A stretch of 64,000 bases of DNA from positions 15,121 through 79,120 of the IMG/VR virus record IMGVR_UViG_3300028388_003025. The stretch is one strand, 5' to 3'. The first letter of the stretch is position 1; every line of letters starts with the position of its first letter. The position numbers and the translations under genes are program-made. Below the pieces are notes generated by a model. It saw only the letters and a program-made list of their open reading frames with translations. It searched no databases and was not told the origin of the DNA. Positions 2,013 to 37,451 of this stretch are shown in pieces. This stretch comes from a virus.

Positions 2013-2056
2013 TTTCTTAATATTCATGCTACTATATATAGAGTGATTAATAATGC

Positions 2057-2085: not shown

Positions 2086-2091
2086 ATTCAT

Positions 2092-6426: not shown

Positions 6427-6427
6427 A

Positions 6428-6456: not shown

Positions 6457-6470
6457 AGAGGGAGCGAAAA

Positions 6471-6677: not shown

Positions 6678-6678
6678 T

Positions 6679-8599: not shown

Positions 8600-11341
8600 A
8601 TGGATATTAAAAACATAACCGAGCTTGTTGCACAGCGCAATGACATTTCTCTTGATCAAAAGTTTAGACAGAAGGCAGACGAAGGTGACCTTTCACTAAT
8701 AAAACAATTCGCACTAGATCAGGAGATCACAACGGAAGATGTACATGTTCGTGCAATGTACTTATGTAACGACTTAGTCGATTACTACTTTACTAGATTT
8801 GACGAAGCAGACTTGGATGCGATAGCAGAAATGCTACCTGGCCAGTCAGTTATTGTTGGACACAAGAGAGAGATGGCACCTATTGCTAGATTTTATAAAG
8901 CAGAGAAGGTAGTTCGTACTGATAAGAAATTCATTAACGAAGAGACTGGCGAAGATGTTCGTTGGATCAAAGCTTACTTCTATTGGCCAACTGGTGTAGA
9001 AGGTTCTGAAGATATGAGAAAGAAAATTGATACAGGTGTATGGAAAGAGATTTCTATATCATGGTCATATAAAAGATGCGTATGTTCTATCTGTGGCAAA
9101 GACATGTTACAAGGAATGGCTGCACTATTTGCTGACGAAGATGAAGATGTTTGTAAGCACAGACTTGGAAAACAATACGAAGGCAAACTTTGCTACGGTA
9201 CTGTAAAAGATATTACAAAAGTATTGGAAGGATCTGTTGTATTTAAAGGCGGACAAAAATTTACTGAATTAGCTTTCGTAAGATCTGCTGATGGACAAGA
9301 AGTTAATATAGAAGATGCTGATCCTGAAGTAAGAGATCTAGCTAATGGTACAATGGAATTCTATAAACAAAGAATACTAGGCGCAAATCCTGATGGCGAA
9401 CCAGCAAAGAATGAATTCAGACATATGGCAAGAGCTTTAGAAGAAGCTAAAGTATCTAGCCCAGTATGGTACAACAAAGAAATGAAAAGATTCTTCTGCG
9501 CAGAGTCAGACAGAGATATTGTTTCTTCTATAGTAGAAGGCGCAAGATTTGTTGAAGGTGTTTCTGAAACACAGGACTTCATGCGTGGCGAGTCCGAGGG
9601 AATCGTATCCTGCTTGGCTGCTCCTGTGGATAAGCAGCCTGGCATCTATTTCAAACCAACTAAGCCTCATCGTAGATATGACGAGTCAAATGAATACTAC
9701 AAGGCCGACAGATTAAGAGAGCTAGTTGGCTCTTATATGTTGTCGCCAAAGTATGATGGTATTCGTCTTACTGTTCATAAATCTGAGAACGGCGAGATCA
9801 GAATGTTTACTATGGGTGGCATGGAAGTTGCTCGCAAATTCCCAGCCATAGTAGAGCAAGTTAGAGGTTTTGATCCAAAGACTTTAATCCTTGACGGTGA
9901 ATTAGTTAGAATTAATAAAAACAAAAGAACAACTCATGCAGATGTTTCTTCATATATAAACAATCCTAACTCAGACATTGATCACAGAACATTTACATTC
10001 AAAGCTTTTGATATGGTATATCTAAATGGTGAAGATGTTTCTGAGAAACCATTATCTGAAAGAGTTCATTTATTAAACTCTAATATTCAGACTACTGCAA
10101 ATGTTAATAGAGTAGCTAACATGACTGCTCAAAGCGGTGAAGAAGTTGTTAGCATGATTGACCAAGTATCTTCTAGAGAAGGTGCTGTGATAAAAAAATC
10201 CGACGCGGCTTACGCAGAGGCTCGAACTTGGTATAAATGGAAGCGTCAAGCAGAATTTACTGCAAGAGTTTCTAAAGTTAACAAGGTAGATTCTAGCAGA
10301 TTTACATATAATATTTCTGTACTAGACGAGAAGGATAATTTGGTTGAAGTTGGCAGGACTTATCAGACTGGTGTTGAGGCAGAAGAAGGCGACAATATCA
10401 GAATGTCAGTTGCTTACATTAAAAAGAATGAAGATGGCTCATTAATGATTTCTGAGCCTAACGTAGTTTGCAAAATGTTTGAATCAATCGAGCCAGATTC
10501 TATGATTACTATAGAAAGAATCATGGAAGAGTATGACGAAGATCGTCAAGGCAAGATGAAGAAATGCCCTAAGTGTGGGATTTCTGTTGCTGCAGATGCT
10601 AAGGTTTGTCCTAAGTGTGGATATAAATTCACTGAAGACACTGGTAAGACTGATAAGAAAACAGATGAGCCTAAGGAAGAATCAGATGATTCTAAATCTA
10701 TAGTTGATGACCCTAACAAAACAACTTATAGAATAGAACACCATTGGGATTCTGCAGAGCAATTCAGAATTCTTGAAATTAATAAAGAAGGAAGATATTT
10801 CAACGTCGTTATCCAAGGGGGGATCAACGACGATTTAAGCAAACGTTCAATGAAGCGTGTTGATTTACATGTTGACCTATCTATTGATGATAACAGAAAA
10901 ATCAAAACGAAAGAAAGACAGGACCTACCTGATAGAGCGTTTGCACTAGTATATATGAAGGATGGACAGAAGGTTCGTAAGCTTCCGTTACATAATAGCA
11001 AAGTTTCTTCTGGACATACCTGGACAGGCGAAGATGTTGAGAGAGCGCAGGTATCTTCTGCAGCTCAGTTGATCTCAAAGATTAAAGATGCACCAGATGC
11101 CAAGATAAGAATGGCTAAGAAGCATATCGATAAACATCTTGAAGCCTTGAATGAAGAAGGTATAGAAACGAAGAAGCGAGAAATATGTAATGGAGAAGCC
11201 AAGGTCGAGGTCTTGACAACCGGCGAGATCCGTGTAGAATTAATTAACACTAAACGTTCAGGCATTACAGAGAGATTTCTCCTGCAGCCTGTACGAATCA
11301 ATGGCAAAATTGATTACTACTACAAGGCTATCCAAAGCTAA
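8600..11341 (+). CDS. Prohead protease fused to ATP-dependent DNA ligase, a Zn ribbon and a C-terminal head-associated domain
   Basis: N-terminal LCNDLVD...VIVGH...KKIDTGVWKEISIS...CSICG...EGSVV protease pattern; ligase motifs I PKYDGIR, III LILDGEL, IIIa FKAFD, IV EGAVIK, V WYKWK, then an OB-fold-sized region; CPKCG-x8-CPKCG; LPDRAFA...RKLPLH. Confidence 0.88.
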   Translation: MDIKNITELVAQRNDISLDQKFRQKADEGDLSLIKQFALDQEITTEDVHVRAMYLCNDLVDYYFTRFDEADLDAIAEMLPGQSVIVGHKREMAPIARFYKAEKVVRTDKKFINEETGEDVRWIKAYFYWPTGVEGSEDMRKKIDTGVWKEISISWSYKRCVCSICGKDMLQGMAALFADEDEDVCKHRLGKQYEGKLCYGTVKDITKVLEGSVVFKGGQKFTELAFVRSADGQEVNIEDADPEVRDLANGTMEFYKQRILGANPDGEPAKNEFRHMARALEEAKVSSPVWYNKEMKRFFCAESDRDIVSSIVEGARFVEGVSETQDFMRGESEGIVSCLAAPVDKQPGIYFKPTKPHRRYDESNEYYKADRLRELVGSYMLSPKYDGIRLTVHKSENGEIRMFTMGGMEVARKFPAIVEQVRGFDPKTLILDGELVRINKNKRTTHADVSSYINNPNSDIDHRTFTFKAFDMVYLNGEDVSEKPLSERVHLLNSNIQTTANVNRVANMTAQSGEEVVSMIDQVSSREGAVIKKSDAAYAEARTWYKWKRQAEFTARVSKVNKVDSSRFTYNISVLDEKDNLVEVGRTYQTGVEAEEGDNIRMSVAYIKKNEDGSLMISEPNVVCKMFESIEPDSMITIERIMEEYDEDRQGKMKKCPKCGISVAADAKVCPKCGYKFTEDTGKTDKKTDEPKEESDDSKSIVDDPNKTTYRIEHHWDSAEQFRILEINKEGRYFNVVIQGGINDDLSKRSMKRVDLHVDLSIDDNRKIKTKERQDLPDRAFALVYMKDGQKVRKLPLHNSKVSSGHTWTGEDVERAQVSSAAQLISKIKDAPDAKIRMAKKHIDKHLEALNEEGIETKKREICNGEAKVEVLTTGEIRVELINTKRSGITERFLLQPVRINGKIDYYYKAIQS

Positions 11342-11371
11342 TATTAATATCCGTAAGAGAGGAGAATGTAA

Positions 11372-11995: not shown

Positions 11996-12009
11996 AGGAG
12001 GAAAACAAA

Positions 12010-12453: not shown

Positions 12454-12467
12454 AGGAGGAGAAACTA

Positions 12468-16009: not shown

Positions 16010-18115
16010 ATGACAACTAGAATAATTCCTGGAGTATATTACGAAGAGATAGAAGATAACGTAGTATCGATTAACCAGTTGCCTTCAGGCGTTGTTGGTA
16101 TTGTTGGAACAGCAGACAAAGGTCCGCTTAATACTCCAACAAGAATAACTTCATGGGAGCAATTTATCCAAGTATTTGGAGGCTGGAGAGACGAGCTAAC
16201 TGGGCCTGCGTCTTATCTTTCTGTTCGTAGACAGGGTGTTGAAGAAATCTATTTTTCAAGAATAGCTGGCTCAACAAAAGCAAAAGCAGCACAAGACTTC
16301 AATCAGGCAGGATCGGTAAAAGCTACTTACACGCTTCCGACTCGTGCTGGTGGAGCAGGCGTTGAATCAACGTTGACACTACAAGATGATGGAGCTACTG
16401 ATCTTATAACTATAACAGCTATAGAGGCTGGCGTTAGTGAAGACAGTATTCAAATCACAATCACAGACGGAACATCAGTTGGCTATAGCAACGTATCAAT
16501 TGCTAAGACTGGATTCAATACAGAAACATATTCAAACGTAAGAGTTAAGACTGGCGACAGCAGAGACCTTACAGCACTTATTAATAATAACTCAAAATTA
16601 GTTACAGCCGTAGCGCTTGCCGATGATGAAACACTAGCTAACATAGCAGCTACACCACTTGCTGGTGGCGCCGATTCTGGTTTGGATTCAATTAGCATTA
16701 CTGCAAAACAAGCGGGCACAGAAGGAAACAGCATTACTGTTAAAGTTGATCATGGAGATACTGCTGGAAGAGTTAATGTATTGATCACTGATGGTACTAC
16801 TTCAGAGCTTTTTGAAGACGTTTATCTTGACGGTGTTGGAAATAGAAACTTAGTTGCAATAATAAATGCAACATCATCTCTTGTAACTGCAGAGCAAATT
16901 GCTACTACAGGCACAGGGCCAGATAACAATCCTCACACACAAGTGGCTACAGCTCTTGTTGGTGGAACAGCAGCAACTGTTGCATTCACTTTAACAGCTG
17001 CAGAATATGGTAAGTATGGCGATTCGCTGAAGGTTTCAATAACTGCAGCAATCTCTGGTGGATATAATATAATACTTGTTGATGCTACTACAAACGCTGT
17101 ATTGGAAACATATACCAATGTACCGTTCGCAGATGTTGTTACTACAATAAATGCATCTTCTGAATATGTTGTTGCAACTGCAGGAACATTAGCGGCACTT
17201 GAAGAAGTTGATAGCGTTTATCTTGCAGCTGGAGACAACGGCGCAACTACTGTTGATTCTGATTATATTGGAACTGTAGATGCTAACGGAAACCGAACGG
17301 GGCTATATGCACTATCAGGAGTTGATGTAATAACTATGCAGGTTGCAGCACAGCAATCTTCTACAGCAATTAACCAAGCCAATGTTTCAATATGTGAATC
17401 AGAGGGTGACAGAACTGCTATCATCTCTCTACCTAAAGATTCAACTCTTGCAGAGGTTAAGACTAAGGCAGCATTGACTGATTCTAAAATCACTCAACAA
17501 GCATGGCCATGGAAAGTTGCTACACATCCAGTTACTGGTGAAGATCTAGTTCTTGCACCTGCTGAATTTTTAGCTGGAACACTATGTGCAAATAAAGTTA
17601 ATTCATCTCCAAGCAACAAAGCAATACTTTGGGCTTATAGAGATTACAAAGAATTTGGTCCTAACTCTAATGAGATGGCTGAGCTAATACAAGCAAGAGT
17701 AGTTCCTTCCGCAAGAAAGAAATCTACACTTGATCCTACTGGAAGATTTGTATGGATGTCTGGACTTACAACAACGTCTTCTGTCCATAACAAAGACAAA
17801 CAGATTTCTGTTATCAGACCATTCTTAAACATTGTTGAAGGAATCGTAGAAGGTCTTGACCCATACGTTTCTGAAAACAATACACCATACTTGAGAGCAG
17901 CTGTTAGATATTCATCTAAGAGATATTTAGAGGGATATGTTAAGAGCGGAACTTTATCTAGCTATTCTCTTAAGTGTGACGCAAGCAACAATACAGAAGA
18001 AGATTCTCGTAACGGTTATCTGTATGTTGATATTGATTTATATTTTACTTATCCAGCAGACTTTATAACTCTTAGAGTTAAAAGAGACCCTGCCGGAAAT
18101 ATTGAAGCAGCATAA
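16010..18115 (+). CDS. Contractile tail sheath protein
   Basis: PGVYYEE...GIVGTADKGPLNTPTRITSWEQFIQVFG N-terminus; CDASNNT...GYLYVDI...PADFI C-terminus. Confidence 0.95.
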   Translation: MTTRIIPGVYYEEIEDNVVSINQLPSGVVGIVGTADKGPLNTPTRITSWEQFIQVFGGWRDELTGPASYLSVRRQGVEEIYFSRIAGSTKAKAAQDFNQAGSVKATYTLPTRAGGAGVESTLTLQDDGATDLITITAIEAGVSEDSIQITITDGTSVGYSNVSIAKTGFNTETYSNVRVKTGDSRDLTALINNNSKLVTAVALADDETLANIAATPLAGGADSGLDSISITAKQAGTEGNSITVKVDHGDTAGRVNVLITDGTTSELFEDVYLDGVGNRNLVAIINATSSLVTAEQIATTGTGPDNNPHTQVATALVGGTAATVAFTLTAAEYGKYGDSLKVSITAAISGGYNIILVDATTNAVLETYTNVPFADVVTTINASSEYVVATAGTLAALEEVDSVYLAAGDNGATTVDSDYIGTVDANGNRTGLYALSGVDVITMQVAAQQSSTAINQANVSICESEGDRTAIISLPKDSTLAEVKTKAALTDSKITQQAWPWKVATHPVTGEDLVLAPAEFLAGTLCANKVNSSPSNKAILWAYRDYKEFGPNSNEMAELIQARVVPSARKKSTLDPTGRFVWMSGLTTTSSVHNKDKQISVIRPFLNIVEGIVEGLDPYVSENNTPYLRAAVRYSSKRYLEGYVKSGTLSSYSLKCDASNNTEEDSRNGYLYVDIDLYFTYPADFITLRVKRDPAGNIEAA

Positions 18116-18127: not shown

Positions 18128-18844
18128 ATGGGTTACAACTTTTCTAGGGAAGCACAGTTAAGGGAATTAGACAGATTAAAAGCCCCTCTAGTTGGTAAGG
18201 ATGTCGTAATTGAGATTCACGTACCGACAGACGCTGCTGGAAATCCATCCACAACTGGTGGAACTACAATGATTTACAAGGGACAGTATACAGACGTTAG
18301 TAGATATACCAACTCTCGTATTGTTGAATATGTTGAGACTGGGTATTCTACTCCGCTTAACATTGCAACAAACTATAGTTTTGGTGGAACGCTTGCTAAG
18401 GGTGACGTTGATGATGTTTTATCTCAAATAGCATTTGGTACTACAAAATTAACAAGATCTGGTGGACGTTTATTTAATAGTCCTGGCGATGCAGGAAACG
18501 ATGTTCCTCCAACAGAAACTATTCTTGATGGTGATAGACCATATCTTACAAACGCTACTGCGTATGACAACTGGCAAAGATCTTCACAGTCAGCAATGAC
18601 TATCAATCCTTATATCTTAAAGATATTTAAGGCTTATACTGGTAGTGCAGGTGAAGATACTGTAAGGTCTGGAACCCCATCTGGCGGAGAGTCAATTGAT
18701 TTCTCTAAAGATTATGGTAGGGTTCATATCTATGAAGAAGTAGTATTCTCAAACTTCAGAGCAGTTTCAAATGCTGGATCAGACATATCAACTCACGTAG
18801 TTGATTGGTATGCATCTGGTTGGGAAATACAAGAACTAGCTTAA
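18128..18844 (+). CDS. Tail tube protein
   Basis: Directly after the sheath gene; SD aaggagg; beta-rich. Confidence 0.7.
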   Translation: MGYNFSREAQLRELDRLKAPLVGKDVVIEIHVPTDAAGNPSTTGGTTMIYKGQYTDVSRYTNSRIVEYVETGYSTPLNIATNYSFGGTLAKGDVDDVLSQIAFGTTKLTRSGGRLFNSPGDAGNDVPPTETILDGDRPYLTNATAYDNWQRSSQSAMTINPYILKIFKAYTGSAGEDTVRSGTPSGGESIDFSKDYGRVHIYEEVVFSNFRAVSNAGSDISTHVVDWYASGWEIQELA

Positions 18845-18850
18845 TAACAT

Positions 18851-18898
18851 ACCCGGCAAGCCTCTTGATAATGCTCAAATGTGCCGGGTTTTGTTTTG
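18851..18898 (+). terminator. Intrinsic terminator-like hairpin with a large loop (possibly a skipping-rope-like RNA motif)
   Basis: ACCCGGCA-agcctcttgataatgctcaaatg-TGCCGGGT followed by TTTGTTTT. Confidence 0.65.
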
Positions 18899-18954: not shown

Positions 18955-18987
18955 TCATTCATATTAAAATACATGGAGGAATTACTT

Positions 18988-19335
18988 ATGGCAGAAGAAA
19001 AGAAGACAGCAAAGAATCCGGTTATAGAATTACCAATAAGCAAGAAGAAGATAGAGCTACGAATAGCAACTGGTAAGGACGAGGTCAAGGCTAACAATGT
19101 TAAGCCTATAAAGGCTGGCGATCCAGAATCTTATGTTGCAAATAGACGTGCCTTGCTTTGCTCTACTGTTGTATCTGTTGATGGTGAAGCTGTTGCTTTT
19201 GTTTCTGATAATCTTGACGAGTTACCGCTTAGAGATAGAGGCGTTCTAGAAACTGCATACCAAGCAATCAATGAAGTAACTGAGCAAGACGAATCTGCAG
19301 TTAAAGAGGTAGTTAACCCTTTTTTCGGAAAGTAG
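18988..19335 (+). CDS. Tail assembly chaperone (gpG-like; start probably ATG 18988)
   Basis: SD ggagga 7 nt before ATG 18988; between tube and tape measure genes; IELPIS...LRIATGKDE...LDELPLRDR pattern; ends at a slippery site. Confidence 0.8.
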   Translation: MAEEKKTAKNPVIELPISKKKIELRIATGKDEVKANNVKPIKAGDPESYVANRRALLCSTVVSVDGEAVAFVSDNLDELPLRDRGVLETAYQAINEVTEQDESAVKEVVNPFFGK

Positions 19336-19778
19336 TCGTAATCGGGGATGTCGCTGGTTTCGGCTTAAGTGAAATACTAGACCAAAGTTTAAAAACAATA
19401 GAGAGCTTATACATAGCTTCTGTTGACTATGGTAATCTTGAAGGCAAAGGTCAACAACAAGAAGCTGAGCAATCTCCTGAGAATGTCATAGACGAAGCAA
19501 TCCTTGCTGGTGATATAGTAAAGATAAAAGACGGCGATCCTGATGTTGAAAAAGAAATAAAGAAATGCATCGATAGTTATGAGAATTTAGGAATAGAAGT
19601 TGATCAAAAGATGCGCGAAGAAATATCTAAGAAGTTTTACTATAGATCATCTAACCCAGATGCCAACATGATAGTAGGAACAAGCATGACTCTTGCAGAA
19701 CTTAAGTCACAAACTCCTGTTATAGATAATAAGGAGAACTTTGAAGCAGGTAAAGCACAGGTTCAAGCACATAATTAA
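19320..19778 (+). CDS. -1 frameshift extension of the tail chaperone (gpGT-like); not in ORF track
   Basis: AAC CCT TTT TTC at 19315-19326 contains C CCT TTT / T TTT TTC; the -1 frame is open for 152 codons (FFRKVVVIGDVAGFGLSEILDQ...QAHN*) to TAA 19776-19778. Confidence 0.85.
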   Translation, partial: FFRKVVVIGDVAGFGLSEILDQSLKTIESLYIASVDYGNLEGKGQQQEAEQSPENVIDEAILAGDIVKIKDGDPDVEKEIKKCIDSYENLGIEVDQKMREEISKKFYYRSSNPDANMIVGTSMTLAELKSQTPVIDNKENFEAGKAQVQAHN

Positions 19779-19793: not shown

Positions 19794-22700
19794 ATGGCTT
19801 TTGATAATATCGATGAACTTCAGTTACGCCTGCAACAACTTGAGGGCAAGATATATGGCGGCACAAGTGGCGAAGACATATTAGATCTTTTTGAAGAGAA
19901 GGAAGAACTTGAAGGAAAGCTAGCGCGTGCAAAGTCTTTTATCTCAAATACGACTGACTCTGATTATCCAAATCTATATTTAGAAAATACTATATACGAT
20001 CAAAACAAAGCAAATCTGCAGAAGATGATCTCACAGCAGGAGACAGAACTAATTCATGCTGATAATTCTTTTAAGTCAGAATCATATAAAGAATTTTTAA
20101 GAAAAGATATTTCCACAAAAAAGAAAACTATAGACAAGATGATGGGCAAGAGCGTTCCACTAACAAAAGAGTTTAGTAATTTTTATGGCGAAGACATTTC
20201 TATAAAAAATAAAACACATTCATTAATAGATACGCACGGAATAGGCAGGGCCTATCAAAGGTTTCTTAAAGATATGGAAACTGGAAAGGTCTCAAAAATA
20301 GATTCTGCTACTGGGATTGCATATGATAAAAACATGCTAACTCCTGCAGACATATTTAAAGATGCAAGATCTGCGCTTGCTGGAGCTGTAACTAACATGT
20401 CTGGCAAGAATGATGACATTGTCCCAATAATAATGGCTAGATCAAATGCATTTGATTTAGCAACTATAACAGAGGCTTTTACTGACCCGTATTCTAAGCA
20501 ATCAAGAATGGTCGACATGATAAGAGATGGTAGCGTGAAGCTAGCTGGCGATCCAATATTAGTTAACAAGTTATCTTTATACAACGCAAACAAGCTTGAA
20601 AGGCTTAATGATACTGAGATAGAGTTCTTCAGAATGATGGAAGGGAATAGGTTGAAGTTTACTCCTATCGGAGCCAGGGCTGCAATGTTTCCTGAAGGCA
20701 GAGCAACATATGTCAAGAATAGAATAACAAAAGGGAAAAATATATCAGCAATAGGATTGTCTAGACTAAGGGGGTTAGACAGCGCTGCATCATTTTCTGG
20801 CGCGTCAAATATAATCGACGAGTCGGTGACAGCCTATAACGAAGTATTTAAATACATTGCAAATAATTTCTTTGGCAACGTTGGCGCAAAGGTTGAAAGA
20901 GTTGATAGGCTTTTTGACGAAATATTTTATGGCAATCCAGAAGATGGGGCAAAAAGATTAACGAAGTTTATATCCAGAGAAAGCATTGCCCAGCCAATAA
21001 GAGAGAAGATAATTGAATCAATATATGGATACAAGCCATCTAAGAGACAAATAAGGGCTGAATATAAAAGCATATCAGAGGCTGTAATATCCTGGGTTAG
21101 AGGAGAAAGAGTATTTCCAAATACAAAAACTATAGGGACAGGATCTGAGCCAGGCAAGCAGTATATAACTGGAGATTTCAGGACAGTAATGTCTAGGTCA
21201 GCAATGAGAAAGAAAGCTACACAGAAGTTTATACCTACAGGTCACGACATGAGAGCGTTTATTAGCGCTAGAGAGTCGCAGCTTATAGAGAAAAAATTCC
21301 TGCTAAAAGAAGATAAGTGGAGTTTGTGGACTGGAATATTTACTAAAGATACTGACGAGATAAAAGAGGTTACTCAAAAGATATTAAAAGAAGAACCATA
21401 TGCTGCTCTTGGTGGTGGATTCAAATCGGCAAATAGAACTATAAACGAAATAATAAGAGCTTCATTCATGGCGGAGTCATCGCTAGACATTGACGAAGCT
21501 AGGGATATATTCCTTGCCAGCAGAGCTGCAAACTACTCTCAAGATAGTAAGAAGTTCGCTTCATATGCAAGAAGAACAAGAAGCATGGGATACGATGATT
21601 TCGTTTCTATGTCAGAAAGATTTAGAACATATAGAGGTCGCGGGGATTCATTAAGAAATTTACAAAGACTAACCCTTCAAGGCTTTAGAAATATGAATTC
21701 ATTAGAGTCTTCTGCTAAATCATATGGTTATGATGCGCTTATAAGTAGAATAGCAAAAAGTTTAGATAGAGATTTAATATTAAAGACAACAGAGTCAGAC
21801 GTAGGAATGGATATACTTGATAGTGTGAAAGGTATAAACCTTAGACAAGCTGCAGTTGAGCTGCTTTATGATCAACTGTCAGCATCTGGAGTGTCATTAA
21901 AGAATGTTAAGTCAAAGAGGGCAGAGCTTTCAAAGACAACATTGCACGGCATGATAAACCCACTACTGCTTAGAGACAGGGGAACGAATAGATTTGCTGG
22001 AAGAATGTTGTTCGATATTCCTGACAGGGCCGCAGGGCAGGTTGGTGATTTTGCTTCTGAATATTTAAAGATATTTAAAAACAACCCTGGATTATTTTCA
22101 TCAATGATGGATGTGTCTGGCTTAAACTTAATGGCGCAGCCAATGAACAAGGCTGGCGGTTTTACAAAACAGAATATAAACATGCAGCTTAACGATGCTA
22201 AGGATTTTATTTCAAAGTTTATTGATCCATCATCTGGTAAGGCTAGGCAAAATATGACGTCTAGAGACAAGGTTATGTATCGTATGTTCATAGGCCAAAG
22301 TGGATCACAAATGATTGAAGACATAGATAAATATAAGCAAAGCCTTTCTGAGGCAAGGCCAGCAATAAATGATATTGTGGCAAATGCAAATAGAAATAAT
22401 AAGCTAAAAAGAATAATGACAAATCTATCTTCAATCGATAAGGCTGATCTAAACAGGATAGATTCGACATATTCTGAAATGGTTGACAACATGAAGCTTC
22501 AGGTATCACTGCTTGGTGGCGACCCGAATTCAAAAGAGTATTCAGATTTTATAGTTGATGAATCTGCGCGGGCATTAAACAGAATAGTAATGGGTTCTAA
22601 CATGGACAATATATTTACTGCCAAGCTAAAGATGGTGCTTGATGAAAACGATTTAAAGGTTGGCAATAGGCTTGACGTTAGACGAAACACATATAGCAAT

Positions 22701-25700
22701 CTTAGGGATAAAAGGCTAATAGGTTTTGACTTAGAAACACACGGAACAAAATATTCTCAGGGCGACGTTTACCAATTTGGAGCTACAGTAAGAAGAAAGG
22801 GAAAGACTACTAACTTTGCCGTAACATTGCCATTCACGTTTAAGGAAGGCGGGAAGAGTTCTGCACTTGTTGGGGCATACACTGGAACACAAGGGCCATC
22901 AAAGAAAGATCTTAGAAGATTAAGATCATTAAACAAATATATATCTGGACTTGATCCAGATCTAGCTGGAACATATTTTGCAGCTTACAATGCAGAGTTC
23001 GACTTAAAGAAGCTAGACTCCTGGATAAATGCTGTCGAGGGTTCTGCAGATGGACTTACTGCTGACCCATACTATCAAGAGTTAAAGAAGTTTCAGAAGT
23101 TTGTTGGCAGAGCCACTAGAAGAGGGAAGACAATCGATGTATTTGATGTTGTAAAAAATGTCAGCATAAATGACAAGTCATTTAGGACGTCTACTTCTCT
23201 ATCGCAAACAAAGGTAGCGTCAATGCTTGGCATAATGTTCTCTAATGCTCATGACGCTGGTGCAGACACGAAGGCAATGATAGATGTTTTACTTGAGCTA
23301 GAAAAGAAACATGGGAACTTGTTTTCATATGGTGCACATAAGGGGAATAGATTTGTTGGCTCGGTAGAAGCTGGGGCAGGCTTCCTAGGAACAATGACAA
23401 AGATGTATGACATTGCAGATGAAGTTGCTAAGAGGCATGGGTCAAGCAATTACGAAAGAAGGCAATTCATAAAGATGATTGAAAAATCAGCTAGGTCAAC
23501 AATGACAAAAGCTGTAAGGATTGTGTCAGAGAAGTCTATGTTCGAGCACGGCAGAGGCGCCAATGTTGGCGACAGCGTGATGGATATGACCAAGGCCAGA
23601 AGGGTAGAGGTTGCACCAGAATCTGTTGGCGCAATAAAGGAAATGCTTATTGATATAGCGAGTATAGACAATAAAGATTCCTTTAGAGCTCTATTAGACA
23701 GGGGCTTCAATAGTGGGGTTAACAAGCTTTATCAAAAGGCGTACCAACTGGTAGAGGGTGATAGAGAAGTTGTTAGCCTAATGAAGTATCTGCCTACTAG
23801 AAGAACAAAAACAAGTAGCAGTCAAGTAATACAAGAAGTGGTTAAGAGGATAAGATCTGGAGCATTAACCAACACAAGGCAAATAAAGGGTGCAATGCCT
23901 AGGATTATATTTGATCTATACCTTGAAAGCATAAAGCCAAAGAAGGAATTAAGGGCGACACAGTCATTTATAAAAGGTTCATACACAGTAATGAAAGGTA
24001 TTGGCAACTCAATAATGCGACGCGGAATCCCGACAGACGCAGAGGTGGCAGAGAATGTCAGAGCCCTTAGGGCCAATAAGGCTTACTCATATATATATAA
24101 AACTGCTGGAGATATAGAAGACAGGCTAATGGCTGCTTCAAGAAAGTATATAGAACCAATAACAGAAACAATAATGAAGCCTATCAATTTCTTTGCTGAT
24201 AAGGAGTATGAAAGATTCGTTTCCTCTAAAGGATTTGGGAAGATAGACGATTTACTATCAGCATCTGGAAGCGCTGATGATATGCAGAAAGTTTTAGAAC
24301 ATAGAGCTAGACTACATAGGAACGCTTTTAAATACAAACATATAAACACTGCATTCAAGGGAGTGAAGAGTGGACTTGGTAAAGTTGGTAGAGTGATTGG
24401 GCTTGGTGGAAAGCTAGGATTAAATATTCTAGACGCATACCAATTTGCAGATTCTGTATCAATGTTGTTTGGAAAGTCTGTGCACTTAAAGGGAATGCGC
24501 CCTGTACTTATAGATTCTAAAGAGGCGGCTAGACATGCCGTTATGTCTGGTGCGTATGAAAGCGAAAAAGACTTTAATGCACAGAGAATATATGGAGCAT
24601 TTTGGACAGCAAAAGGAATAAAGATGGGCGGCACAGGCGTTAACATATTCCTAAGAGGAGCAGGCAAAGGTTTAGCCAAGGGAGCCCTAAAAGGTCTTGG
24701 TAAAAAAACAATATCAAAATTCGGTATAGGTGCTGGGCTTGCTATGATACCAGTCGTAGGCCCATTTTTAGCTGGTGCATATGGTATTGCAATGGGAATA
24801 TCAATGGCTATAGACATTGTTGGCCTTGGCCAAATGTTCATGGGTGGCCAAGGCTTTTCTACTCTAGATATATTTAGGACAGCTACAGCATATAAGTATG
24901 ATTCACTAGGTCGAGAGTACACAACTAGGGAGTGGTCTCTCTGGGCAAAGATGCGTGGTCACACTGCGCCTGGATATGCCGACGACTCTTCAAGCGGTAT
25001 AAAGCTGCTTGGTGCAGCAGCAGCAATAGCTGCATTCAATGCTCATGGATCAATGCGTACACATAATGTCTCTGATATAGAAGACTTAATGGGTGCTACA
25101 GCAAAAAGAGCATTGATAAAAGACCAGTCAAGCGCACTGCTTAATAGCCTAGAACAAGTTTTCAAAGGGGGAGTCGAAACAAAAGACAAGAAAGCTTTTA
25201 GGTCAATGTTAATTGATACACAGCGTCGCCTAAAGAAAGAGGTAGCAACAGGATTAATACCTGAATTTGAAGGTACCTCAATAAGGCGTCAGTTAGTTAA
25301 AATAAACAGGATGCATAAAGCTGGGTATGAAGGGGGCACAGTTAGCGCTGAGCTAGTAAGAACACTTGCCGATGCTAAATATTACATGATGTTCGATAAA
25401 TACAGAGGCATGAGCATCAAGCAGCGAGACTCGTTGAGACAAGTAATGTTCTCTGAAGATCTAAAGCCTTATCTAAACGAATATAAGCATGCATTGTCAA
25501 TGTCTGTTAACTATCTAACATCAGGAAGTGAAGGAAAGATAGCAGATATATTTAAAGATAATAATATGCTTGGCGAAGTAGCCTCAATTATTGGCAAGCG
25601 TGGAGACAAGAGAATAGATTCTAGTTCGTATGAACATATGGTAGATCTAGTTAAGTCTCAGTTAAAGGCAAAGACTGATAAGTTACAGAGAGTTCAAAAC

Positions 25701-28700
25701 TTAGCAACTCAAGGCAATGTTGGCTATGAGGCAAACTTACTGAGAAAGGCATACATAAGTTCTGGGTTTTATAAGTCAGATGCAGTTAAGCAATTAAAAG
25801 GAACTATAAACCTTTATGATATGACTGGCGAGTTTGGCAATCCAGGAGAATTTAAACGCTTTGTTAGTCAGTATAAAAACGTTAAGACTGCAGGGAAATG
25901 GCTTGCAACTAGTCTGTGGTTCACTCCAGTAGATAAGCTTGCTGAAGCATATTATATTGGATCGCTACCTGAAGAAGACAGAGATGAAAGGCAGAGAGCC
26001 GCTGCTGCAAAGATAATGACGTTTGGCCCACTACAGGGATTCAATGTTCTAACTGCTGGGGCAAATAAGAATTCAAGCATTCAGACTGTAATGATGAATA
26101 TGGATGCTGTTGAGGGTGTAAAGAATCCATTAGTTGGCATAATGATGTCATTTTACTTTGGCCAAAATAATGACATATATTCAAAGAGCTCAAGATATAA
26201 GTCAGGGCCATTCAAGGATGGAGGAATGCTTAGTGGGATTAAGTTAGCTACTGCAGAGGCGCTTAATACAGCAGCAACAACTACGCTTGTTGTTAAGGGT
26301 GCGGAAGTTGCTGGTGACTTTCATACTTCTAAACTATCAAAGCTAGACAATCCTACTGTATTGCTTTCATACCACAAGAACCGTATGCACTCATTTTATT
26401 CTGAAGGAAGCAATGTTAAGAAATTGAGATCACAGATAATAAAACTAAAACAATCAATCGTTGAAGGAAAGGTTGATGGAGGAGAATCTAAGAAGATAAT
26501 TAAATATTATGACAAGATGATAGCTGACTTAGATAATTTAGATTATTCAAAATTCAAGAAAGCAATTGATAAAGACTTTGCACAGATGACTGATATGATA
26601 AAGACTAGGTATAAGGATGCGAATGAACATATATTAACAAGCACTTTCAAAGAGAACATGGATGATAGTACGAAGTATATGTCGTCTTTCTATAAGTCAT
26701 TTACAATTAGAACAAGACCAGAGGGCATGCCATCTACTACCGCTACAATAATGACACAAACTATTATGAAAGGCTTAGGCCTTTCGCCTAGAGATAATCA
26801 AGCAATTAATGCTGCATTCAATTTAGGCAGCATGGCATATATGGCGCTAGCATCTGCGACAATAGCTAATGCTAATTATGGATACGACACGTATGCTACG
26901 AATGCTTATATAGATGGATTAAAAGCCTTGCATTATATGGAAGAAAATATTGCTGGAGATATAGCAAATATTCCTCTTGCAAACTTGCCAATGAATTTAA
27001 GAAAGTCACTAGGCTCATTTTTAGATGAGAGAACCAGAGAGCTTAATAAAAGCAGAACAGGAAAATTGTTAAGGCTACCTGGAATTAATAAGTCACAAAT
27101 GTTCTGGCAGGACGTAATGGGCCTTGGTCTATCAAGGGGCAATAAGAAACTTACAACAATGCAAGCTGCAACTAGAGCTGGTTATACTAGAGAGCAGGTT
27201 TTAAAAATGATCGCCCAGTATAGATCAGAAGCTCTAATGTCTCCGACCAAGAAGGTTTTATCGTATTCTGCAGAGGAAGGTAAGTTGTCTAAGCTTGGCA
27301 TTGACAATAAGATGAGGAAAAAGTTAGGCCTTGATGAATATACTTTGGATAAGATGGAAAAGCTTGCGCAGTCAGGATTGATTTCAGATCCAGGAACCTT
27401 TGTTAATAAGCGCGCATTGTTTTCATTACAGAAGAAGAAAGTCCACGGAAGCCTAACCTTCGCTGAAAAGAAATTGTATAGGGAACTAGTTGGTGCGTAT
27501 ACTGGCGGAGTAAGACAATATGAAGGTTATGAGAAGTTGTTTTACAAGCCAAGATATGGACTAGAAATGTTTGCAAAAGAGATTGAAATAAATAGCATAT
27601 ACTCAAATGCAGTTAACCCAAGCGGAAGTCTAGACTTTGCTTCGCTTCTTCAGGACGCAAGCATTAAAGAGCAACAGACATTTATGAATACAAATATGTG
27701 GACGCCGCTTCAAGATGACAATACTTCGCTTGCAGTTGAAGGCCACAAAAACTTTGTTGTTTTGTCATCACTTGCATTGTCTCGTGATCCAGACTTTAGA
27801 AAAAGATTTGAGAATATATCAAAGAAATACAACGTGGTAACTGGAACAACTGGCAAGGGTGGAATGAGAGACGCAATAAACATAGCCTCTTTCCTAATGC
27901 ATAAGAAAGGCGATTATAAGGGAGCTGCAGATATATCAGACAGGTTCTGGTTTGGAGATGCGAATAGAGCCGTTGAAGAAGCTAGGATGTTTAATCTTGG
28001 CAGTGAATACCACGACCTATGGAAGTCACAAATGAATGACGCAGAAGCTATGCGTAAGACATTATCTGATTCTGAGTTCTATGATTTTATGGTTGAGTCA
28101 TCTACATATATTGCATCTAAAGATAAAGCGCTAGCAAATTTCTTCGTTGGTTCAGATGACAAAATGCTTAAAGAGGTTAAGCGCCGAATGTTCTTTAAGT
28201 TCGGTGAAGACAAGAAGTCAATGAGGATAATGGAAGACCCAGTAACTGGCAAGGTAATATTTAAACCAGGCGGACGAAAGACGAGAAAGAGATTCGTATT
28301 CGATAGGCGTAGAAATATATTTAAAAACTATAGCTACTCAAGCGGGTTTAATGGCGCTGGGTTTAAGCCAGATAGCTATCATAACAAGATGGTTCAGGCA
28401 TACCTCAAGATAGATGAGAACTTGCTGTATACTGCACAATCATATGTTATAAGCCTAGATAAGGACGATGTAGTTCCGAAAGAAATGAAAAATGCGCACA
28501 TCGTAATCGAGCAGGGCAACGCAGAACACTCTCTTGCCTTTAATCCGGAAACAAATGAATGGCATGTTCAGGTAAGAAATATAGACCCACAACTAAACTA
28601 TGAAGAAAAGAACAGGTTCTTTACTCGCCACAACTATAAAAAACAGCTTACTGCTGAAGCGAAAACTCTTGTATCTATGAAGACAGATTTACAGGAGCTT

Positions 28701-29090
28701 TCTAAAGCGGTATCTCGTGGGTCAGTAAATGAAGAAGGTGAATTTGAATACGTTCCAGGCAAGTCTCCTCTATCTAAAGATAAGGGGCATGCAGCAAAGA
28801 TGCAGCGAGTATTTAACAGATTAAAGACAGAGGCCAAATACGTAAGAGATGATAATAGCAGACGAACAGAAATGGAGAATAGCCAAGCTGCTGTGAAATT
28901 AATGATAGAAAAATTGAGACAAATTGGAGGAATAAACAAGGAATCAAAGAAGCTAAAAAAGATGGCTAATAAATATTGGCTAGATTTTATGTCTTTTGAT
29001 TACTATTCTAAAGACAGCTTAGAACAACTTATAACGACAGACATATCAGAAATAAGCTATAATAGTCTTAACAAGGTGGTTGTATATTAA
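19794..29090 (+). CDS. Tape-measure-position protein (3098 aa) with an internal DEDDh 3'-5' exonuclease domain
   Basis: Follows the G/GT chaperone; long, helical, K/A/S-rich, with a Gly-rich hydrophobic segment (~24600-24860); exonuclease motifs IGFDLETHG, AYNAEFD, AHDAGAD at ~22716-23300. Confidence 0.8.
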   Translation: MAFDNIDELQLRLQQLEGKIYGGTSGEDILDLFEEKEELEGKLARAKSFISNTTDSDYPNLYLENTIYDQNKANLQKMISQQETELIHADNSFKSESYKEFLRKDISTKKKTIDKMMGKSVPLTKEFSNFYGEDISIKNKTHSLIDTHGIGRAYQRFLKDMETGKVSKIDSATGIAYDKNMLTPADIFKDARSALAGAVTNMSGKNDDIVPIIMARSNAFDLATITEAFTDPYSKQSRMVDMIRDGSVKLAGDPILVNKLSLYNANKLERLNDTEIEFFRMMEGNRLKFTPIGARAAMFPEGRATYVKNRITKGKNISAIGLSRLRGLDSAASFSGASNIIDESVTAYNEVFKYIANNFFGNVGAKVERVDRLFDEIFYGNPEDGAKRLTKFISRESIAQPIREKIIESIYGYKPSKRQIRAEYKSISEAVISWVRGERVFPNTKTIGTGSEPGKQYITGDFRTVMSRSAMRKKATQKFIPTGHDMRAFISARESQLIEKKFLLKEDKWSLWTGIFTKDTDEIKEVTQKILKEEPYAALGGGFKSANRTINEIIRASFMAESSLDIDEARDIFLASRAANYSQDSKKFASYARRTRSMGYDDFVSMSERFRTYRGRGDSLRNLQRLTLQGFRNMNSLESSAKSYGYDALISRIAKSLDRDLILKTTESDVGMDILDSVKGINLRQAAVELLYDQLSASGVSLKNVKSKRAELSKTTLHGMINPLLLRDRGTNRFAGRMLFDIPDRAAGQVGDFASEYLKIFKNNPGLFSSMMDVSGLNLMAQPMNKAGGFTKQNINMQLNDAKDFISKFIDPSSGKARQNMTSRDKVMYRMFIGQSGSQMIEDIDKYKQSLSEARPAINDIVANANRNNKLKRIMTNLSSIDKADLNRIDSTYSEMVDNMKLQVSLLGGDPNSKEYSDFIVDESARALNRIVMGSNMDNIFTAKLKMVLDENDLKVGNRLDVRRNTYSNLRDKRLIGFDLETHGTKYSQGDVYQFGATVRRKGKTTNFAVTLPFTFKEGGKSSALVGAYTGTQGPSKKDLRRLRSLNKYISGLDPDLAGTYFAAYNAEFDLKKLDSWINAVEGSADGLTADPYYQELKKFQKFVGRATRRGKTIDVFDVVKNVSINDKSFRTSTSLSQTKVASMLGIMFSNAHDAGADTKAMIDVLLELEKKHGNLFSYGAHKGNRFVGSVEAGAGFLGTMTKMYDIADEVAKRHGSSNYERRQFIKMIEKSARSTMTKAVRIVSEKSMFEHGRGANVGDSVMDMTKARRVEVAPESVGAIKEMLIDIASIDNKDSFRALLDRGFNSGVNKLYQKAYQLVEGDREVVSLMKYLPTRRTKTSSSQVIQEVVKRIRSGALTNTRQIKGAMPRIIFDLYLESIKPKKELRATQSFIKGSYTVMKGIGNSIMRRGIPTDAEVAENVRALRANKAYSYIYKTAGDIEDRLMAASRKYIEPITETIMKPINFFADKEYERFVSSKGFGKIDDLLSASGSADDMQKVLEHRARLHRNAFKYKHINTAFKGVKSGLGKVGRVIGLGGKLGLNILDAYQFADSVSMLFGKSVHLKGMRPVLIDSKEAARHAVMSGAYESEKDFNAQRIYGAFWTAKGIKMGGTGVNIFLRGAGKGLAKGALKGLGKKTISKFGIGAGLAMIPVVGPFLAGAYGIAMGISMAIDIVGLGQMFMGGQGFSTLDIFRTATAYKYDSLGREYTTREWSLWAKMRGHTAPGYADDSSSGIKLLGAAAAIAAFNAHGSMRTHNVSDIEDLMGATAKRALIKDQSSALLNSLEQVFKGGVETKDKKAFRSMLIDTQRRLKKEVATGLIPEFEGTSIRRQLVKINRMHKAGYEGGTVSAELVRTLADAKYYMMFDKYRGMSIKQRDSLRQVMFSEDLKPYLNEYKHALSMSVNYLTSGSEGKIADIFKDNNMLGEVASIIGKRGDKRIDSSSYEHMVDLVKSQLKAKTDKLQRVQNLATQGNVGYEANLLRKAYISSGFYKSDAVKQLKGTINLYDMTGEFGNPGEFKRFVSQYKNVKTAGKWLATSLWFTPVDKLAEAYYIGSLPEEDRDERQRAAAAKIMTFGPLQGFNVLTAGANKNSSIQTVMMNMDAVEGVKNPLVGIMMSFYFGQNNDIYSKSSRYKSGPFKDGGMLSGIKLATAEALNTAATTTLVVKGAEVAGDFHTSKLSKLDNPTVLLSYHKNRMHSFYSEGSNVKKLRSQIIKLKQSIVEGKVDGGESKKIIKYYDKMIADLDNLDYSKFKKAIDKDFAQMTDMIKTRYKDANEHILTSTFKENMDDSTKYMSSFYKSFTIRTRPEGMPSTTATIMTQTIMKGLGLSPRDNQAINAAFNLGSMAYMALASATIANANYGYDTYATNAYIDGLKALHYMEENIAGDIANIPLANLPMNLRKSLGSFLDERTRELNKSRTGKLLRLPGINKSQMFWQDVMGLGLSRGNKKLTTMQAATRAGYTREQVLKMIAQYRSEALMSPTKKVLSYSAEEGKLSKLGIDNKMRKKLGLDEYTLDKMEKLAQSGLISDPGTFVNKRALFSLQKKKVHGSLTFAEKKLYRELVGAYTGGVRQYEGYEKLFYKPRYGLEMFAKEIEINSIYSNAVNPSGSLDFASLLQDASIKEQQTFMNTNMWTPLQDDNTSLAVEGHKNFVVLSSLALSRDPDFRKRFENISKKYNVVTGTTGKGGMRDAINIASFLMHKKGDYKGAADISDRFWFGDANRAVEEARMFNLGSEYHDLWKSQMNDAEAMRKTLSDSEFYDFMVESSTYIASKDKALANFFVGSDDKMLKEVKRRMFFKFGEDKKSMRIMEDPVTGKVIFKPGGRKTRKRFVFDRRRNIFKNYSYSSGFNGAGFKPDSYHNKMVQAYLKIDENLLYTAQSYVISLDKDDVVPKEMKNAHIVIEQGNAEHSLAFNPETNEWHVQVRNIDPQLNYEEKNRFFTRHNYKKQLTAEAKTLVSMKTDLQELSKAVSRGSVNEEGEFEYVPGKSPLSKDKGHAAKMQRVFNRLKTEAKYVRDDNSRRTEMENSQAAVKLMIEKLRQIGGINKESKKLKKMANKYWLDFMSFDYYSKDSLEQLITTDISEISYNSLNKVVVY

Positions 29091-30145: not shown

Positions 30146-30152
30146 TTATTCC

Positions 30153-31154: not shown

Positions 31155-31163
31155 GAGACATTA

Positions 31164-35062: not shown

Positions 35063-35940
35063 TGCAAGGATATACTTACGAAGGTGCAATATCAGACCTA
35101 ACTGCAATGGACTCAATGCCAGGGACTTATACTCGTCGCGGAGATGTTCAAGGCAAAGTCCATAGTATTGCAAAGAACGCTACAACAAGCATCAGAGCCT
35201 TCAAGGGCTTTGTGGTTAGCGATAGGCCTTACACAAACTCTGATGGTATTGCATTAATGAAGGTAAGGAATCCCAGGTCGCTAACAATAGAATGTAAGTT
35301 ATCTACACCTATAGGCGGTAGAGATAGAGTAAGGGACTACACTCCTACAAAGGGAGATGTTGTTTACTGTATTCACTGCATGGATGATGACTATCCAATT
35401 ATTTTCGCATTTCCTAATGGACACTCAGGTAATAGGCAGTGGGCAAGACTTGAGCCTGGCGAAGAGCGTGATGTTTACAGAAATAAAACATATATGTGGC
35501 ATAAGATAAATGGTAGTTGCAACTTTAATATTCGTAATAATTATTTATTAGAAGTTGCCAATGACTTTAAATCTATAATCAAAAACAATTACACACTTGA
35601 AGTTAAAGATACTATCAATATATCTTCAGTAGATAGGACCTGGATATACGCAGGCTCATTCCTTAATCTTAAATCAGCTAAGAATGTTAATATAAGATCA
35701 GAGTGGTCTTCTATAAATATGCGTGCAGCTAAAAACTTTTGGGCCCAGATAGATGGAAAAGTTGAGCTGAAATGTGCTAATATACTACTAGGGGCTAGTG
35801 AAGGACATGAGTTGGCGCTTAAAGGAACGACAGCGCAGCTTGAGTTTAATACTCATACGCATATAGGTAATTTAGGTTTTCCTACTGCACCACCAACTGT
35901 CCCAATGAATGCGTTAGCATCGGAGGTAAAAGTTGTATAG
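35062..35940 (+). CDS. Baseplate central spike (gpV/gp5-like)
   Basis: OB-fold YTPTKGDVV, beta-helix-like repeats, C-terminal FNTHTH (HxH metal-binding tip). Confidence 0.85.
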   Translation: MQGYTYEGAISDLTAMDSMPGTYTRRGDVQGKVHSIAKNATTSIRAFKGFVVSDRPYTNSDGIALMKVRNPRSLTIECKLSTPIGGRDRVRDYTPTKGDVVYCIHCMDDDYPIIFAFPNGHSGNRQWARLEPGEERDVYRNKTYMWHKINGSCNFNIRNNYLLEVANDFKSIIKNNYTLEVKDTINISSVDRTWIYAGSFLNLKSAKNVNIRSEWSSINMRAAKNFWAQIDGKVELKCANILLGASEGHELALKGTTAQLEFNTHTHIGNLGFPTAPPTVPMNALASEVKVV

Positions 35941-36346
35941 TGTCCCTAATGATATAATGCTTGACACAGAAACGAACGAACTTACGTTTAATGCTCGTGG
36001 CGATCTAATGACAGCAGCTGACCTCGTTGGTGAAGATAATAAGATAAATGCAAGCGTTAAGCAATGGGTTAGAAATAGAATTTTACTTGATTACTTAAAT
36101 GGACACCCAGAGCTTGAGAGTTTAAATAACTATGTAAGCGAATTAAATACAGACAATCTAGAGGTCTCAACGCTTTCTACTATAAATAAGTATATAGAAA
36201 CTGCGCTTCTTGAGAATGAGTTCATAGAATCTGTATCAGTATCAACATCTCAAGATAAGGAAGACTTATCTTTGATATTAAATATAGATTATGTTGTATA
36301 TGCGTCAGCATCTACTGATAGTTTACAAGCAATTTGGGAGGTTTAG
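35933..36346 (+). CDS. Baseplate wedge/sheath initiator (gpW/gp25-like)
   Basis: Between spike and baseplate J; IETALLENEFIESVSV...LNIDY pattern. Confidence 0.7.
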   Translation: MYSVPNDIMLDTETNELTFNARGDLMTAADLVGEDNKINASVKQWVRNRILLDYLNGHPELESLNNYVSELNTDNLEVSTLSTINKYIETALLENEFIESVSVSTSQDKEDLSLILNIDYVVYASASTDSLQAIWEV

Positions 36347-36347
36347 G

Positions 36348-37451
36348 ATGGGATTTTTACCAATAGGGCTGGAGCTTTTAACTTATGACCAGATAGTCAA
36401 CGATATAGTTGATGTATTTGATGCAGAGGACAAACATGCTACAGACGCAAGAACAATAGGATCAGTTCAAAGAACATATATAGAAGCTATAGCGTTACAA
36501 ATATTTAAGATACATAACAGACAAAGAAAATTAATGTCTCGTCCACACTGGGCATCGGCATCTGGTAAAGATCTAGATGATTTAGCTGCAGGATATGGGC
36601 TCACAAGGGAAGATGCATCAAAATCTTCTGGTCCATTAACCTTCTATAGAAGCACAGCAACACAGCCAATCCTAATTCCTGCAGGAACAAGGGTAGTTAG
36701 ACCAGCCTCTGGTAGCGTTGAGGAGCTTGGATACTATACATTGTCAGACGTATATCTAGGCATTGGCGTAGCGTCTCAAACAGTTGATGTCGAGGCGGAG
36801 TCTACAGGAGAAGTTGGAAACACTGGCATAAGAACAATTACACAAACTAGCGTAGCGGGAATCACTGGCGCTTATAACCCATCTGAATATACTAATGGCA
36901 GAGACATAGAAAGTGATGATGAGTTAAGAAGAAGATTATCATTGCTGTTTGCATCAATGCAGAAAGCAACTATTGATGCAATTAAATTCGCTGCATTCTC
37001 AGTGGCTGGAGTTGACTCTGTTGTTATATCAGAGAATGATCCATACCCTGGATATATAAAAGTATATACTTCAGACGAGAACGGTATTCAAACGCTGAGC
37101 ACAAAGCTTGCCGTTGAGGATGCTATAGAGGAATATAAAGCTGCAGGCATTACTGTTGTTGTAGACAAGCCTCAAATAAGATATGAAGCAATAACTGTTC
37201 AGGTCAATATAGTAGATCCAACATTATATGTAGATGTAAAAGACGAACTTGAACTATCTCTAACTAATTGGCTTAATCAGTTTGCCATGGGAGAAGCATT
37301 GTTAATATCAGAGATAATTGCAAAACTTCATGAGAGTTCAAATGTTTATAATGTTGAGTCAGTAGTTGCACCAGCGACAGACATAGAGCCATTAAACAAT
37401 CAAATAATAAGGCCATCTTCAATTAATGTGGAGATAACAAATGCCGCTTAA
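36348..37451 (+). CDS. Baseplate J-like wedge protein (start probably ATG 36348)
   Basis: ASGKDLDDLA..YGLTR, IPAGTRV, GEVGN, GRDIESDDELRRR; SD gggagg before 36348. Confidence 0.92.
   Translation: MGFLPIGLELLTYDQIVNDIVDVFDAEDKHATDARTIGSVQRTYIEAIALQIFKIHNRQRKLMSRPHWASASGKDLDDLAAGYGLTREDASKSSGPLTFYRSTATQPILIPAGTRVVRPASGSVEELGYYTLSDVYLGIGVASQTVDVEAESTGEVGNTGIRTITQTSVAGITGAYNPSEYTNGRDIESDDELRRRLSLLFASMQKATIDAIKFAAFSVAGVDSVVISENDPYPGYIKVYTSDENGIQTLSTKLAVEDAIEEYKAAGITVVVDKPQIRYEAITVQVNIVDPTLYVDVKDELELSLTNWLNQFAMGEALLISEIIAKLHESSNVYNVESVVAPATDIEPLNNQIIRPSSINVEITNAA

Follow-up and report, generated by a model that had tools for sequence, protein, structure and literature searches.

Tape-measure proteins (TMPs) of tailed phages are usually viewed as rulers and channel formers, occasionally carrying enzymatic domains that cut the cell wall, and to this view Thermus phage P23-45 has added the delivery of an RNA polymerase. 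The P23-45 protein gp96 is a TMP of 5,002 amino acids with an active virion RNA polymerase in its N-terminal part, proposed to stay with the TMP pore during DNA entry; other parts of gp96 contain transmembrane and metallopeptidase domains, which many TMPs have (Chaban et al., 2024, PMC10770324). A nuclease domain is found in Tme, a TMP-related effector of a Streptomyces davawensis contractile injection system (CIS), which harbors an EndA-like endonuclease at its C-terminus (Nagakubo et al., 2024, PMC11126660). In phage 80alpha, the C-terminus of the TMP is positioned at the tail tip and the TMP is resolved together with DNA in the tail at the neck, and it probably acts as a pilot protein that is ejected (bioRxiv 10.1101/2024.12.10.627806). 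The subject of the present analysis is a DEDDh (DnaQ-like) 3'-5' exonuclease domain embedded in a giant open reading frame (ORF) of 3,098 amino acids, which occupies the tape-measure slot in the tail module of an uncultured virus. The stretch of DNA analysed, referred to as the window, consists of 64,000 nucleotides (bases 15121-79120 of the 79,120-bp IMG/VR virus record IMGVR_UViG_3300028388_003025) with a G+C content of 37.9%, and the record is estimated by CheckV to be ~72% complete.

The giant ORF (P0002) extends over positions 19794..29090 on the + strand, is uninterrupted across its 9,297 nt and lies between a chaperone pair and the baseplate genes. At its widest, the exonuclease domain covers residues 932-1238 (22587..23507, + strand), corresponding to positions 67-373 of the 397 in the profile phrog_192, with a core at residues 972-1172 as delimited by a custom profile hidden Markov model (HMM) and a match to the PADLOC DEDDh model at residues 977-1166. 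The three Exo motifs are all encoded on the + strand. ExoI, FDLETHG, begins at residue 978 (22725..22745), supplies D979 and E981, and aligns with DFETTG of the PolC exonuclease 2p1j and with the consensus DtETTG. ExoII, YNAEFD, begins at residue 1065 (22986..23003), supplies D1070, and aligns with HNANFD of 2p1j and the consensus hNAsFD, while ExoIII, NAHDAGAD, begins at residue 1151 (23244..23267) and aligns with the consensus aHrAlaD, its H1153-x4-D1158 being the form that defines the DEDDh subfamily. ExoI and ExoII are separated by 91 residues and ExoII and ExoIII by 83, with insertions of about 20 and 30 residues in the domain relative to the DEDDh family. Besides the catalytic five, T982, G984, N1066, A1067 and F1069 are kept, all of them in fixed alignment columns of the family, at an identity of 12-22% to 59 aligned viral DEDDh domains (about 17% overall). 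The retention of catalytic and motif residues despite such extreme divergence suggests selection on catalysis.

An initial annotation of the window had claimed an intact DEDDh domain at residues ~975-1165 (22716-23300) of this ORF. Every string it quoted is reproduced by translating 22716-23300 in the frame of ORF 19794..29090, and the five catalytic residues (D979, E981, D1070, H1153 and D1158) are present as stated, with profiles, HMM and structural model in agreement. The location given was right and the limits slightly narrow, the profile extent being the wider. The string IDVFDVVK, listed there among the motifs, does not belong with them, as it matches no canonical catalytic motif and is placed within an insertion by the custom alignment.

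Homology to the DEDDh family is evident from several independent collections of profiles. The profile phrog_192, annotated as "DNA polymerase exonuclease subunit", matches with E-values of 1.8e-10 when queried with a 195-aa segment, 7.9e-13 with a piece of 400 aa and 2.6e-14 on searching the genome, and the CRISPR-associated DEDDh model of PADLOC is matched over positions 2-138 of 139 (E 8.7e-10). NCBIfam models for the Pol III epsilon subunit, PolC, the DnaQ/DinG family and exonuclease I follow at E 3e-5 to 1e-2, with the epsilon, PolC and DinG-related DnaQ models at 3e-5 to 3e-4, and the best match in the ESM-Atlas is a viral cluster termed "putative DnaQ-like 3'-5' exonuclease" (score 0.93). 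In a sequence search of the PDB, the sole near-match is the PolC exonuclease 2p1j, which is weak (E 0.36) and covers ExoI and ExoII; the ExoIII half of the domain gave chance-level matches only. The custom HMM was built from 63 viral DEDDh domains, fetched by a degenerate ExoI...ExoII DNA pattern and filtered for H-x4-D. On the giant ORF it scores 38.4 bits for the full sequence and 35.7 bits for the best domain, with the three Exo motifs in register, whereas the best of 500 block-shuffled copies reaches 3.4 bits and none of these copies shows the three motifs in order (0/500). Pairwise phmmer comparison with each of the 63 fetched domains yields no more than 10 bits (<=10 bits). Sequence comparison thereby confirms the segment as a genuine DEDDh exonuclease homologue, beyond a chance set of motifs.

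A structural model of the domain was obtained from AlphaFold with a multiple sequence alignment of 60 rows, composed of the query and fetched viral DEDDh domains, and reaches a predicted local distance difference test score (pLDDT) of 75 and a predicted template modelling score (pTM) of 0.77, with low pLDDT at residues 1023-1031. The order of its secondary-structure elements is beta1-3/alphaA/beta4/alphaB, which we take to agree with the DnaQ fold. The best Foldseek matches are all DEDDh nucleases, at E ~5e-6, and comprise Staphylococcus aureus DinG, Cas2-DnaQ, RNase T, CRN-4, epsilon, TREX and ExoI. Alignment of the model by VIA-align gives a Z-score of 15.0 to 3'hExo (1w0h, 180 residues, 3.4 A) and of 12-13 to TREX1/2, epsilon, ExoI, DinG and Cas2-DnaQ.

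The assignment of the giant ORF as a TMP derives from its place in the gene order. Directly upstream lies the tail assembly chaperone pair (18973..19778, + strand), recognised from the sequence by three-frame translation. A short form of 120 aa (18973-19335) carries the slippery heptamer T_TTT_TTC near its end (19320-19326), from which the -1 frame stays open for ~150 codons to a TAA at 19776-19778, the frameshift layout of the G/GT chaperone pair located ahead of tape measure genes. Further upstream on the + strand are the tail sheath (16010..18115; phrog_23, E 1.8e-46; similar to the Alicyclobacillus phage MMB025 sheath at E 8.5e-31) and a probable tail tube of 238 aa (18128..18844), assigned by position and by its best, though weak, match, which is the MMB025 tube (E 0.011). 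Directly 3' of the tube candidate, a hairpin followed by a U-run (18850-18898, + strand; free energy -17.4 kcal/mol, z -3.5) looks like a terminator or attenuator between the abundant sheath and tube genes and the chaperone and TMP genes. The major head protein is encoded at 12468-13550 (phrog_3922, E 2.6e-74).

Downstream of the giant ORF, five ORFs of 351, 333, 644, 655 and 292 aa (29090-35940, + strand) have no meaningful family match, the 333-aa ORF giving sub-threshold family matches only and the 644-aa ORF being weakly similar to the MMB025 protein that follows the TMP (E 5e-5). These are succeeded by the baseplate wedge genes, gp25-like and then Baseplate_J-like (35933..37451, + strand; phrog_120, E 1.4e-5; phrog_6, E 3.6e-58; Pfam Baseplate_J, E 5.3e-30). 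The same order is found in MMB025, the nearest annotated phage by sheath, where the sheath, wedge and post-TMP protein match collinearly and an annotated TMP of 783 aa occupies the slot; neither MMB025 nor MT835508 has a match to phrog_192. From chaperone to baseplate, no other ORF has TMP-like size or hydrophobic features, and the two directly downstream of the giant ORF are unlike rulers. Position therefore supports the 3,098-aa ORF as the only possible tape measure of a myovirus-type tail module.

Within the ORF, ~965 residues without assigned function precede the exonuclease, and ~400 separate it from the sole strongly hydrophobic segment, which is Gly/Ala-rich and located at residues 1640-1683 (24711..24842, + strand; Kyte-Doolittle scan, maximum 1.74). 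No internal repeats were found in the ORF, its composition is even along the whole length with no compositional island at the exonuclease, and counts of internal promoter and terminator signals are no higher than in shuffles. An ESM-Atlas search with residues 1240-3098 was uninformative. A hidden two-barrel RNA polymerase was considered and rejected, no D.D.D (DxDxD, DFDGD-type) or related pattern occurring anywhere in the 3,098 residues. The ORF contains 0 Cys, against a mean of 0.70% in the 39 other ORFs of the window that were counted (P ~4e-10), and this absence may reflect a constraint on proteins travelling through the tail. The two ORFs directly downstream (29090-31154) are likewise Cys-free.

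Neither the domain nor the ORF has a detectable family of its own. A phmmer search of 1.84 billion representative proteins returned no relative of the domain besides itself; a tetratricopeptide repeat protein and an immunoglobulin-like repeat protein that came up as phmmer relatives were spurious, matched through an "LDPD.AGTYF"-like string. Word-indexed searches found the query only, both with the domain region and whole ORF (against proteins of 1,703-5,422 aa) and with the domain alone (proteins of 168-538 aa, E up to 10). Among known phages, neither tblastn with the domain, the first 935 aa and the last 1,598 aa nor megablast of the gene gave a match, and no loci related by sheath were found. 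The nearest relatives of the head protein are encoded on phage contigs from the human gut, at about 37% identity, and the tail layout of these contigs is different, so that they are of no help in interpreting the giant ORF.

Comparable architectures were sought among the domains fetched by the pattern scan, and an independent fusion of the two was verified. Among the 63 DEDDh domains listed from that scan, at least two reside in ORFs of more than 2,000 aa. The first, a protein of 2,096 aa (IMGVR_UViG_3300009504_000032, 428-6718, - strand), matches phrog_192 at residues 136-341 (E 4e-26), seven "tail length tape measure" PHROGs at residues ~690-1450, and has hydrophobic segments at residues 1029-1088, downstream of the exonuclease. 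The hydrophobic segment of the present ORF is likewise C-terminal to the exonuclease, in the same arrangement. The second, a protein of 2,512 aa (IMGVR_UViG_3300044630_004832, 5224-12762, - strand), carries its DEDDh domain at residues 1294-1475 and is flanked by genes for a helicase (phrog_62, E 2e-103), an HNH endonuclease and a transglycosylase; it may be a TMP or a protein of the polyvalent type. Both giants, which come from unrelated viral contigs, contain 0 Cys, and no sheath was found in either record.

Taken together, these features point to the giant ORF as the TMP of a contractile-tailed phage with a DEDDh exonuclease as cargo delivered at infection, a reading to which we assign a probability of about 0.55. 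On this evidence the phage probably carries a ready-made enzyme for trimming DNA or RNA ends into the cell along with its genome. The cargo, at residues ~966-1180 with a helical extension to ~1238, would be placed in the head-proximal third of the TMP. The TMP would be stored extended in the tail tube, reaching from the baseplate, where its C-terminus would be, to an N-terminal part beside the end of the DNA, and would exit the tail on infection, as is thought for TMPs. The hydrophobic residues 1640-1683 would then join a membrane channel, and the exonuclease would refold on the cytoplasmic side and trim free 3' ends through a two-metal mechanism.

Several points weigh against this reading. 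With regard to the domain, the Pfam family RNase_T (PF00929) attains 17.4 bits with the 195-aa segment (E 0.0069), below its gathering threshold of 24 bits, and has no match in the genome search. The AlphaFold prediction that the initial annotation had proposed yields the DEDDh fold when guided by the alignment, but residues 936-1209 modelled as a single sequence reach a pLDDT of 35. The alignment rows are known DEDDh domains picked by their ExoI/ExoII motifs, so that the fold is not independent of the homology call and the model demonstrates compatibility with an RNase-H-like fold rather than independent proof of it. Moreover, no homologue of ORF or domain was found in which conservation of the active site would show. 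With regard to the TMP, no Pfam or PHROG family apart from the exonuclease, TMP families included, matched the whole ORF or ten overlapping pieces of it, TIGR02675 gives E 0.05 at best, and BLASTP against the MMB025 TMP reveals no similarity. TMPs are notoriously diverse, and this non-match weakens the tape-measure assignment without excluding it; what stands of that assignment, which the initial annotation had made outright, is the position in the slot, alongside a Gly-rich hydrophobic segment and the lack of cysteines. A folded domain of 25 kDa, in three or more copies, does not fit obviously in the lumen of the tail tube, and its storage and refolding are therefore assumed. Furthermore, the virus is an uncultured, incomplete contig, for which virion location, ejection and activity are predictions.

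The substrate can be named with less assurance than the enzyme. DEDDh enzymes take nucleotides off at a free 3'-OH, an end that cyclic molecules do not possess. Because the chemistry requires it, degradation of cyclic oligonucleotides is unlikely and mechanistically the least likely of the three roles proposed in the initial annotation. DNA 3' ends at the site of entry, most likely the termini of the incoming genome, are put forward tentatively and with low certainty; linear nucleic acids of host or defence origin are a somewhat lesser possibility. If the genome termini were trimmed, they would become joinable for a ligase of the phage itself, encoded in the head block.

This ligase is part of a 913-aa ORF (8600..11341, + strand) with a LigD-type ATP-dependent ligase domain, of the kind used in non-homologous end joining (NHEJ), and zinc ribbons (DNA_ligase_A_M, E 3.3e-25; TIGR02779, E 1.6e-29). 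The sole match of its N-terminal domain is phrog_16951, of unassigned function, and downstream of it are a coiled-coil scaffold-like ORF and then the head protein. The prohead-protease model S78 had no match in the genome; S77 had none either, but its control matched nowhere, which voids the test. Ku was not found on the ~72%-complete contig. The location of a LigD-type ligase in a head-gene block is one local clue that favours work on DNA ends by the exonuclease, and packaging of the ligase protein in the head is a guess. Elsewhere in the window, a 179-aa ORF (279-818, + strand) matches PF02517, the family of Rce1-like CAAX proteases (E 1.2e-10). This family is often found in abortive-infection or immunity contexts.

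A more far-reaching and doubtful proposal is that the virion bears a complete end-joining kit, comprising a TMP exonuclease beside the leading DNA end and a ligase in a head-module protein. In such a kit, the exonuclease would trim or resect the termini on entry and the ligase would close the circle ahead of any attack by RecBCD of the host or by defence nucleases, requiring neither a host repair protein nor new gene expression. A parallel is offered by single-strand-annealing joining driven by the 3'-exonuclease of vaccinia or T4 polymerase. The use of NHEJ for genome circularisation is attributed to mycobacteriophages of clusters J and O (Pitcher et al., 2006, as cited in PMC3706429).

Three other explanations of the domain have to be considered alongside the delivery of an end-trimming enzyme by the TMP. 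The one that survives best, if at odds well short of even, holds that the cargo is a counter-defence or host-takeover nuclease, which would attack linear nucleic acids of the host or its defences and not the phage genome. Candidate targets would include host DNA ends, the 3' ends of mRNA or tRNA, retron or guide RNAs and linear oligonucleotide signals. An intact active site in a gene occupying the TMP slot is as expected on this account, and injected multidomain phage proteins with conflict enzymes are established as "polyvalent proteins" (PMC7824862). In addition, DEDDh domains are used in defence as well, as the CRISPR-associated PADLOC model illustrates, so that the fold is common in phage-host conflicts. 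However, no particular defence system is connected with the domain by any feature of the genome, the three to six copies that each virion would deliver are few for bulk degradation, and cyclic signals would offer no free 3' end to such a nuclease.

Unlikely is a second explanation, in which the DEDDh fold is exapted or inactive and serves the TMP structurally or in binding nucleic acid, for example by gripping the DNA end, with no cutting involved. The extreme divergence of the domain, with its low pairwise scores to any single DEDDh domain and its Pfam score under the cut-off, would be in keeping with a loss of catalysis, as would the long insertions between motifs and the low pLDDT at residues 1023-1031. 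Yet the five catalytic and five further motif residues are kept at ~17% identity, which is the pattern that catalytic selection would leave.

Least likely, by a narrow margin, is that the giant ORF is not the TMP, or not a virion protein, being a non-structural multidomain protein located among the tail genes by chance, or that a shorter C-terminal product is the ruler: the failure of all TMP families to match speaks in its favour, as do the tail of ~465 nm that our own arithmetic gives if all 3,098 residues measured length (the rule of thumb being 0.15 nm of tail per residue) and the 2,512-aa exonuclease-bearing giant that lies beside helicase, HNH and transglycosylase genes with no recognisable tail genes, but the interval from chaperone to baseplate offers no other ORF that is TMP-like by size or hydrophobicity, a frameshifted chaperone pair directly precedes the giant ORF, internal promoter and terminator signals are not above shuffles in an ORF of uniform composition, and P23-45 provides the precedent of a 5,002-aa TMP with N-terminal enzyme cargo.

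Should a TMP with exonuclease cargo be real and recurrent, many uncultured phages would bring a nucleic-acid-processing enzyme to the very point and moment of DNA entry. This bears on the protection, maturation and circularisation of genome ends, on how early defences are met, and on the storage of folded enzymes in tails and their passage through them. The ligase encoded in the head block of the same genome makes the end-joining hypothesis concrete and testable, and the Cys-free giants may point to a wider restriction on the sequence of proteins that pass along a tail.

Among described systems, gp96 of P23-45 is alike in being a giant TMP with an N-terminal nucleic-acid enzyme that needs the cytoplasm to act. 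It differs in that its enzyme is a two-barrel RNA polymerase with DFDGD, as opposed to a DEDDh exonuclease with no DxDxD here, in the long non-contractile tail of P23-45 where the present phage has a sheath, and in that activity and virion presence have been demonstrated for gp96 while for the present protein both are predictions. The view of the initial annotation that TMPs usually carry peptidoglycan hydrolases and not nucleases is fair, with the qualification that a cargo acting in the cytoplasm, the gp96 RNA polymerase, was already published (PMC10770324). Tme resembles the present protein as a giant TMP-like protein of a contractile machine with a nuclease domain, hydrophobic and coiled-coil segments, and a gene just upstream of the baseplate; unlike it, Tme is a component of a CIS of bacteria, and its nuclease is an EndA-like endonuclease (DRGH / H-N-N) at the C-terminus, whereas that of the phage protein is an internal DEDDh exonuclease. 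In a search of the literature on tape measures with an exonuclease, DnaQ, DEDD or nuclease domain, no description of DEDDh in a phage TMP was found, and the TMP with enzyme cargo is already known as a kind, while exonuclease cargo appears to be unpublished.

With the known DEDDh nucleases (epsilon, PolC, RNase T, ExoI, TREX1/2, ERI1/3'hExo, Cas2-DnaQ and DinG) and with phrog_192, the domain shares the Exo motifs, the H-x4-D form and the modelled fold. Those enzymes stand alone or are joined to a polymerase or a helicase, whereas here the domain is embedded at residues ~966-1180 of a 3,098-aa tail protein. The closest architectural counterpart is the 2,096-aa fusion from IMGVR_UViG_3300009504_000032, in which the exonuclease is also N-terminal to a TMP-homologous, hydrophobic region of a Cys-free protein. 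There the exonuclease sits at the extreme N-terminus, while here ~965 residues precede it; the pairwise phmmer score indicates no specific kinship between the two, and the counterpart is a fragment without a sheath gene. This fusion implies that an architecture with the exonuclease N-terminal to the membrane or ruler part recurs, of which the present protein would be an extremely diverged, contractile-tailed instance.

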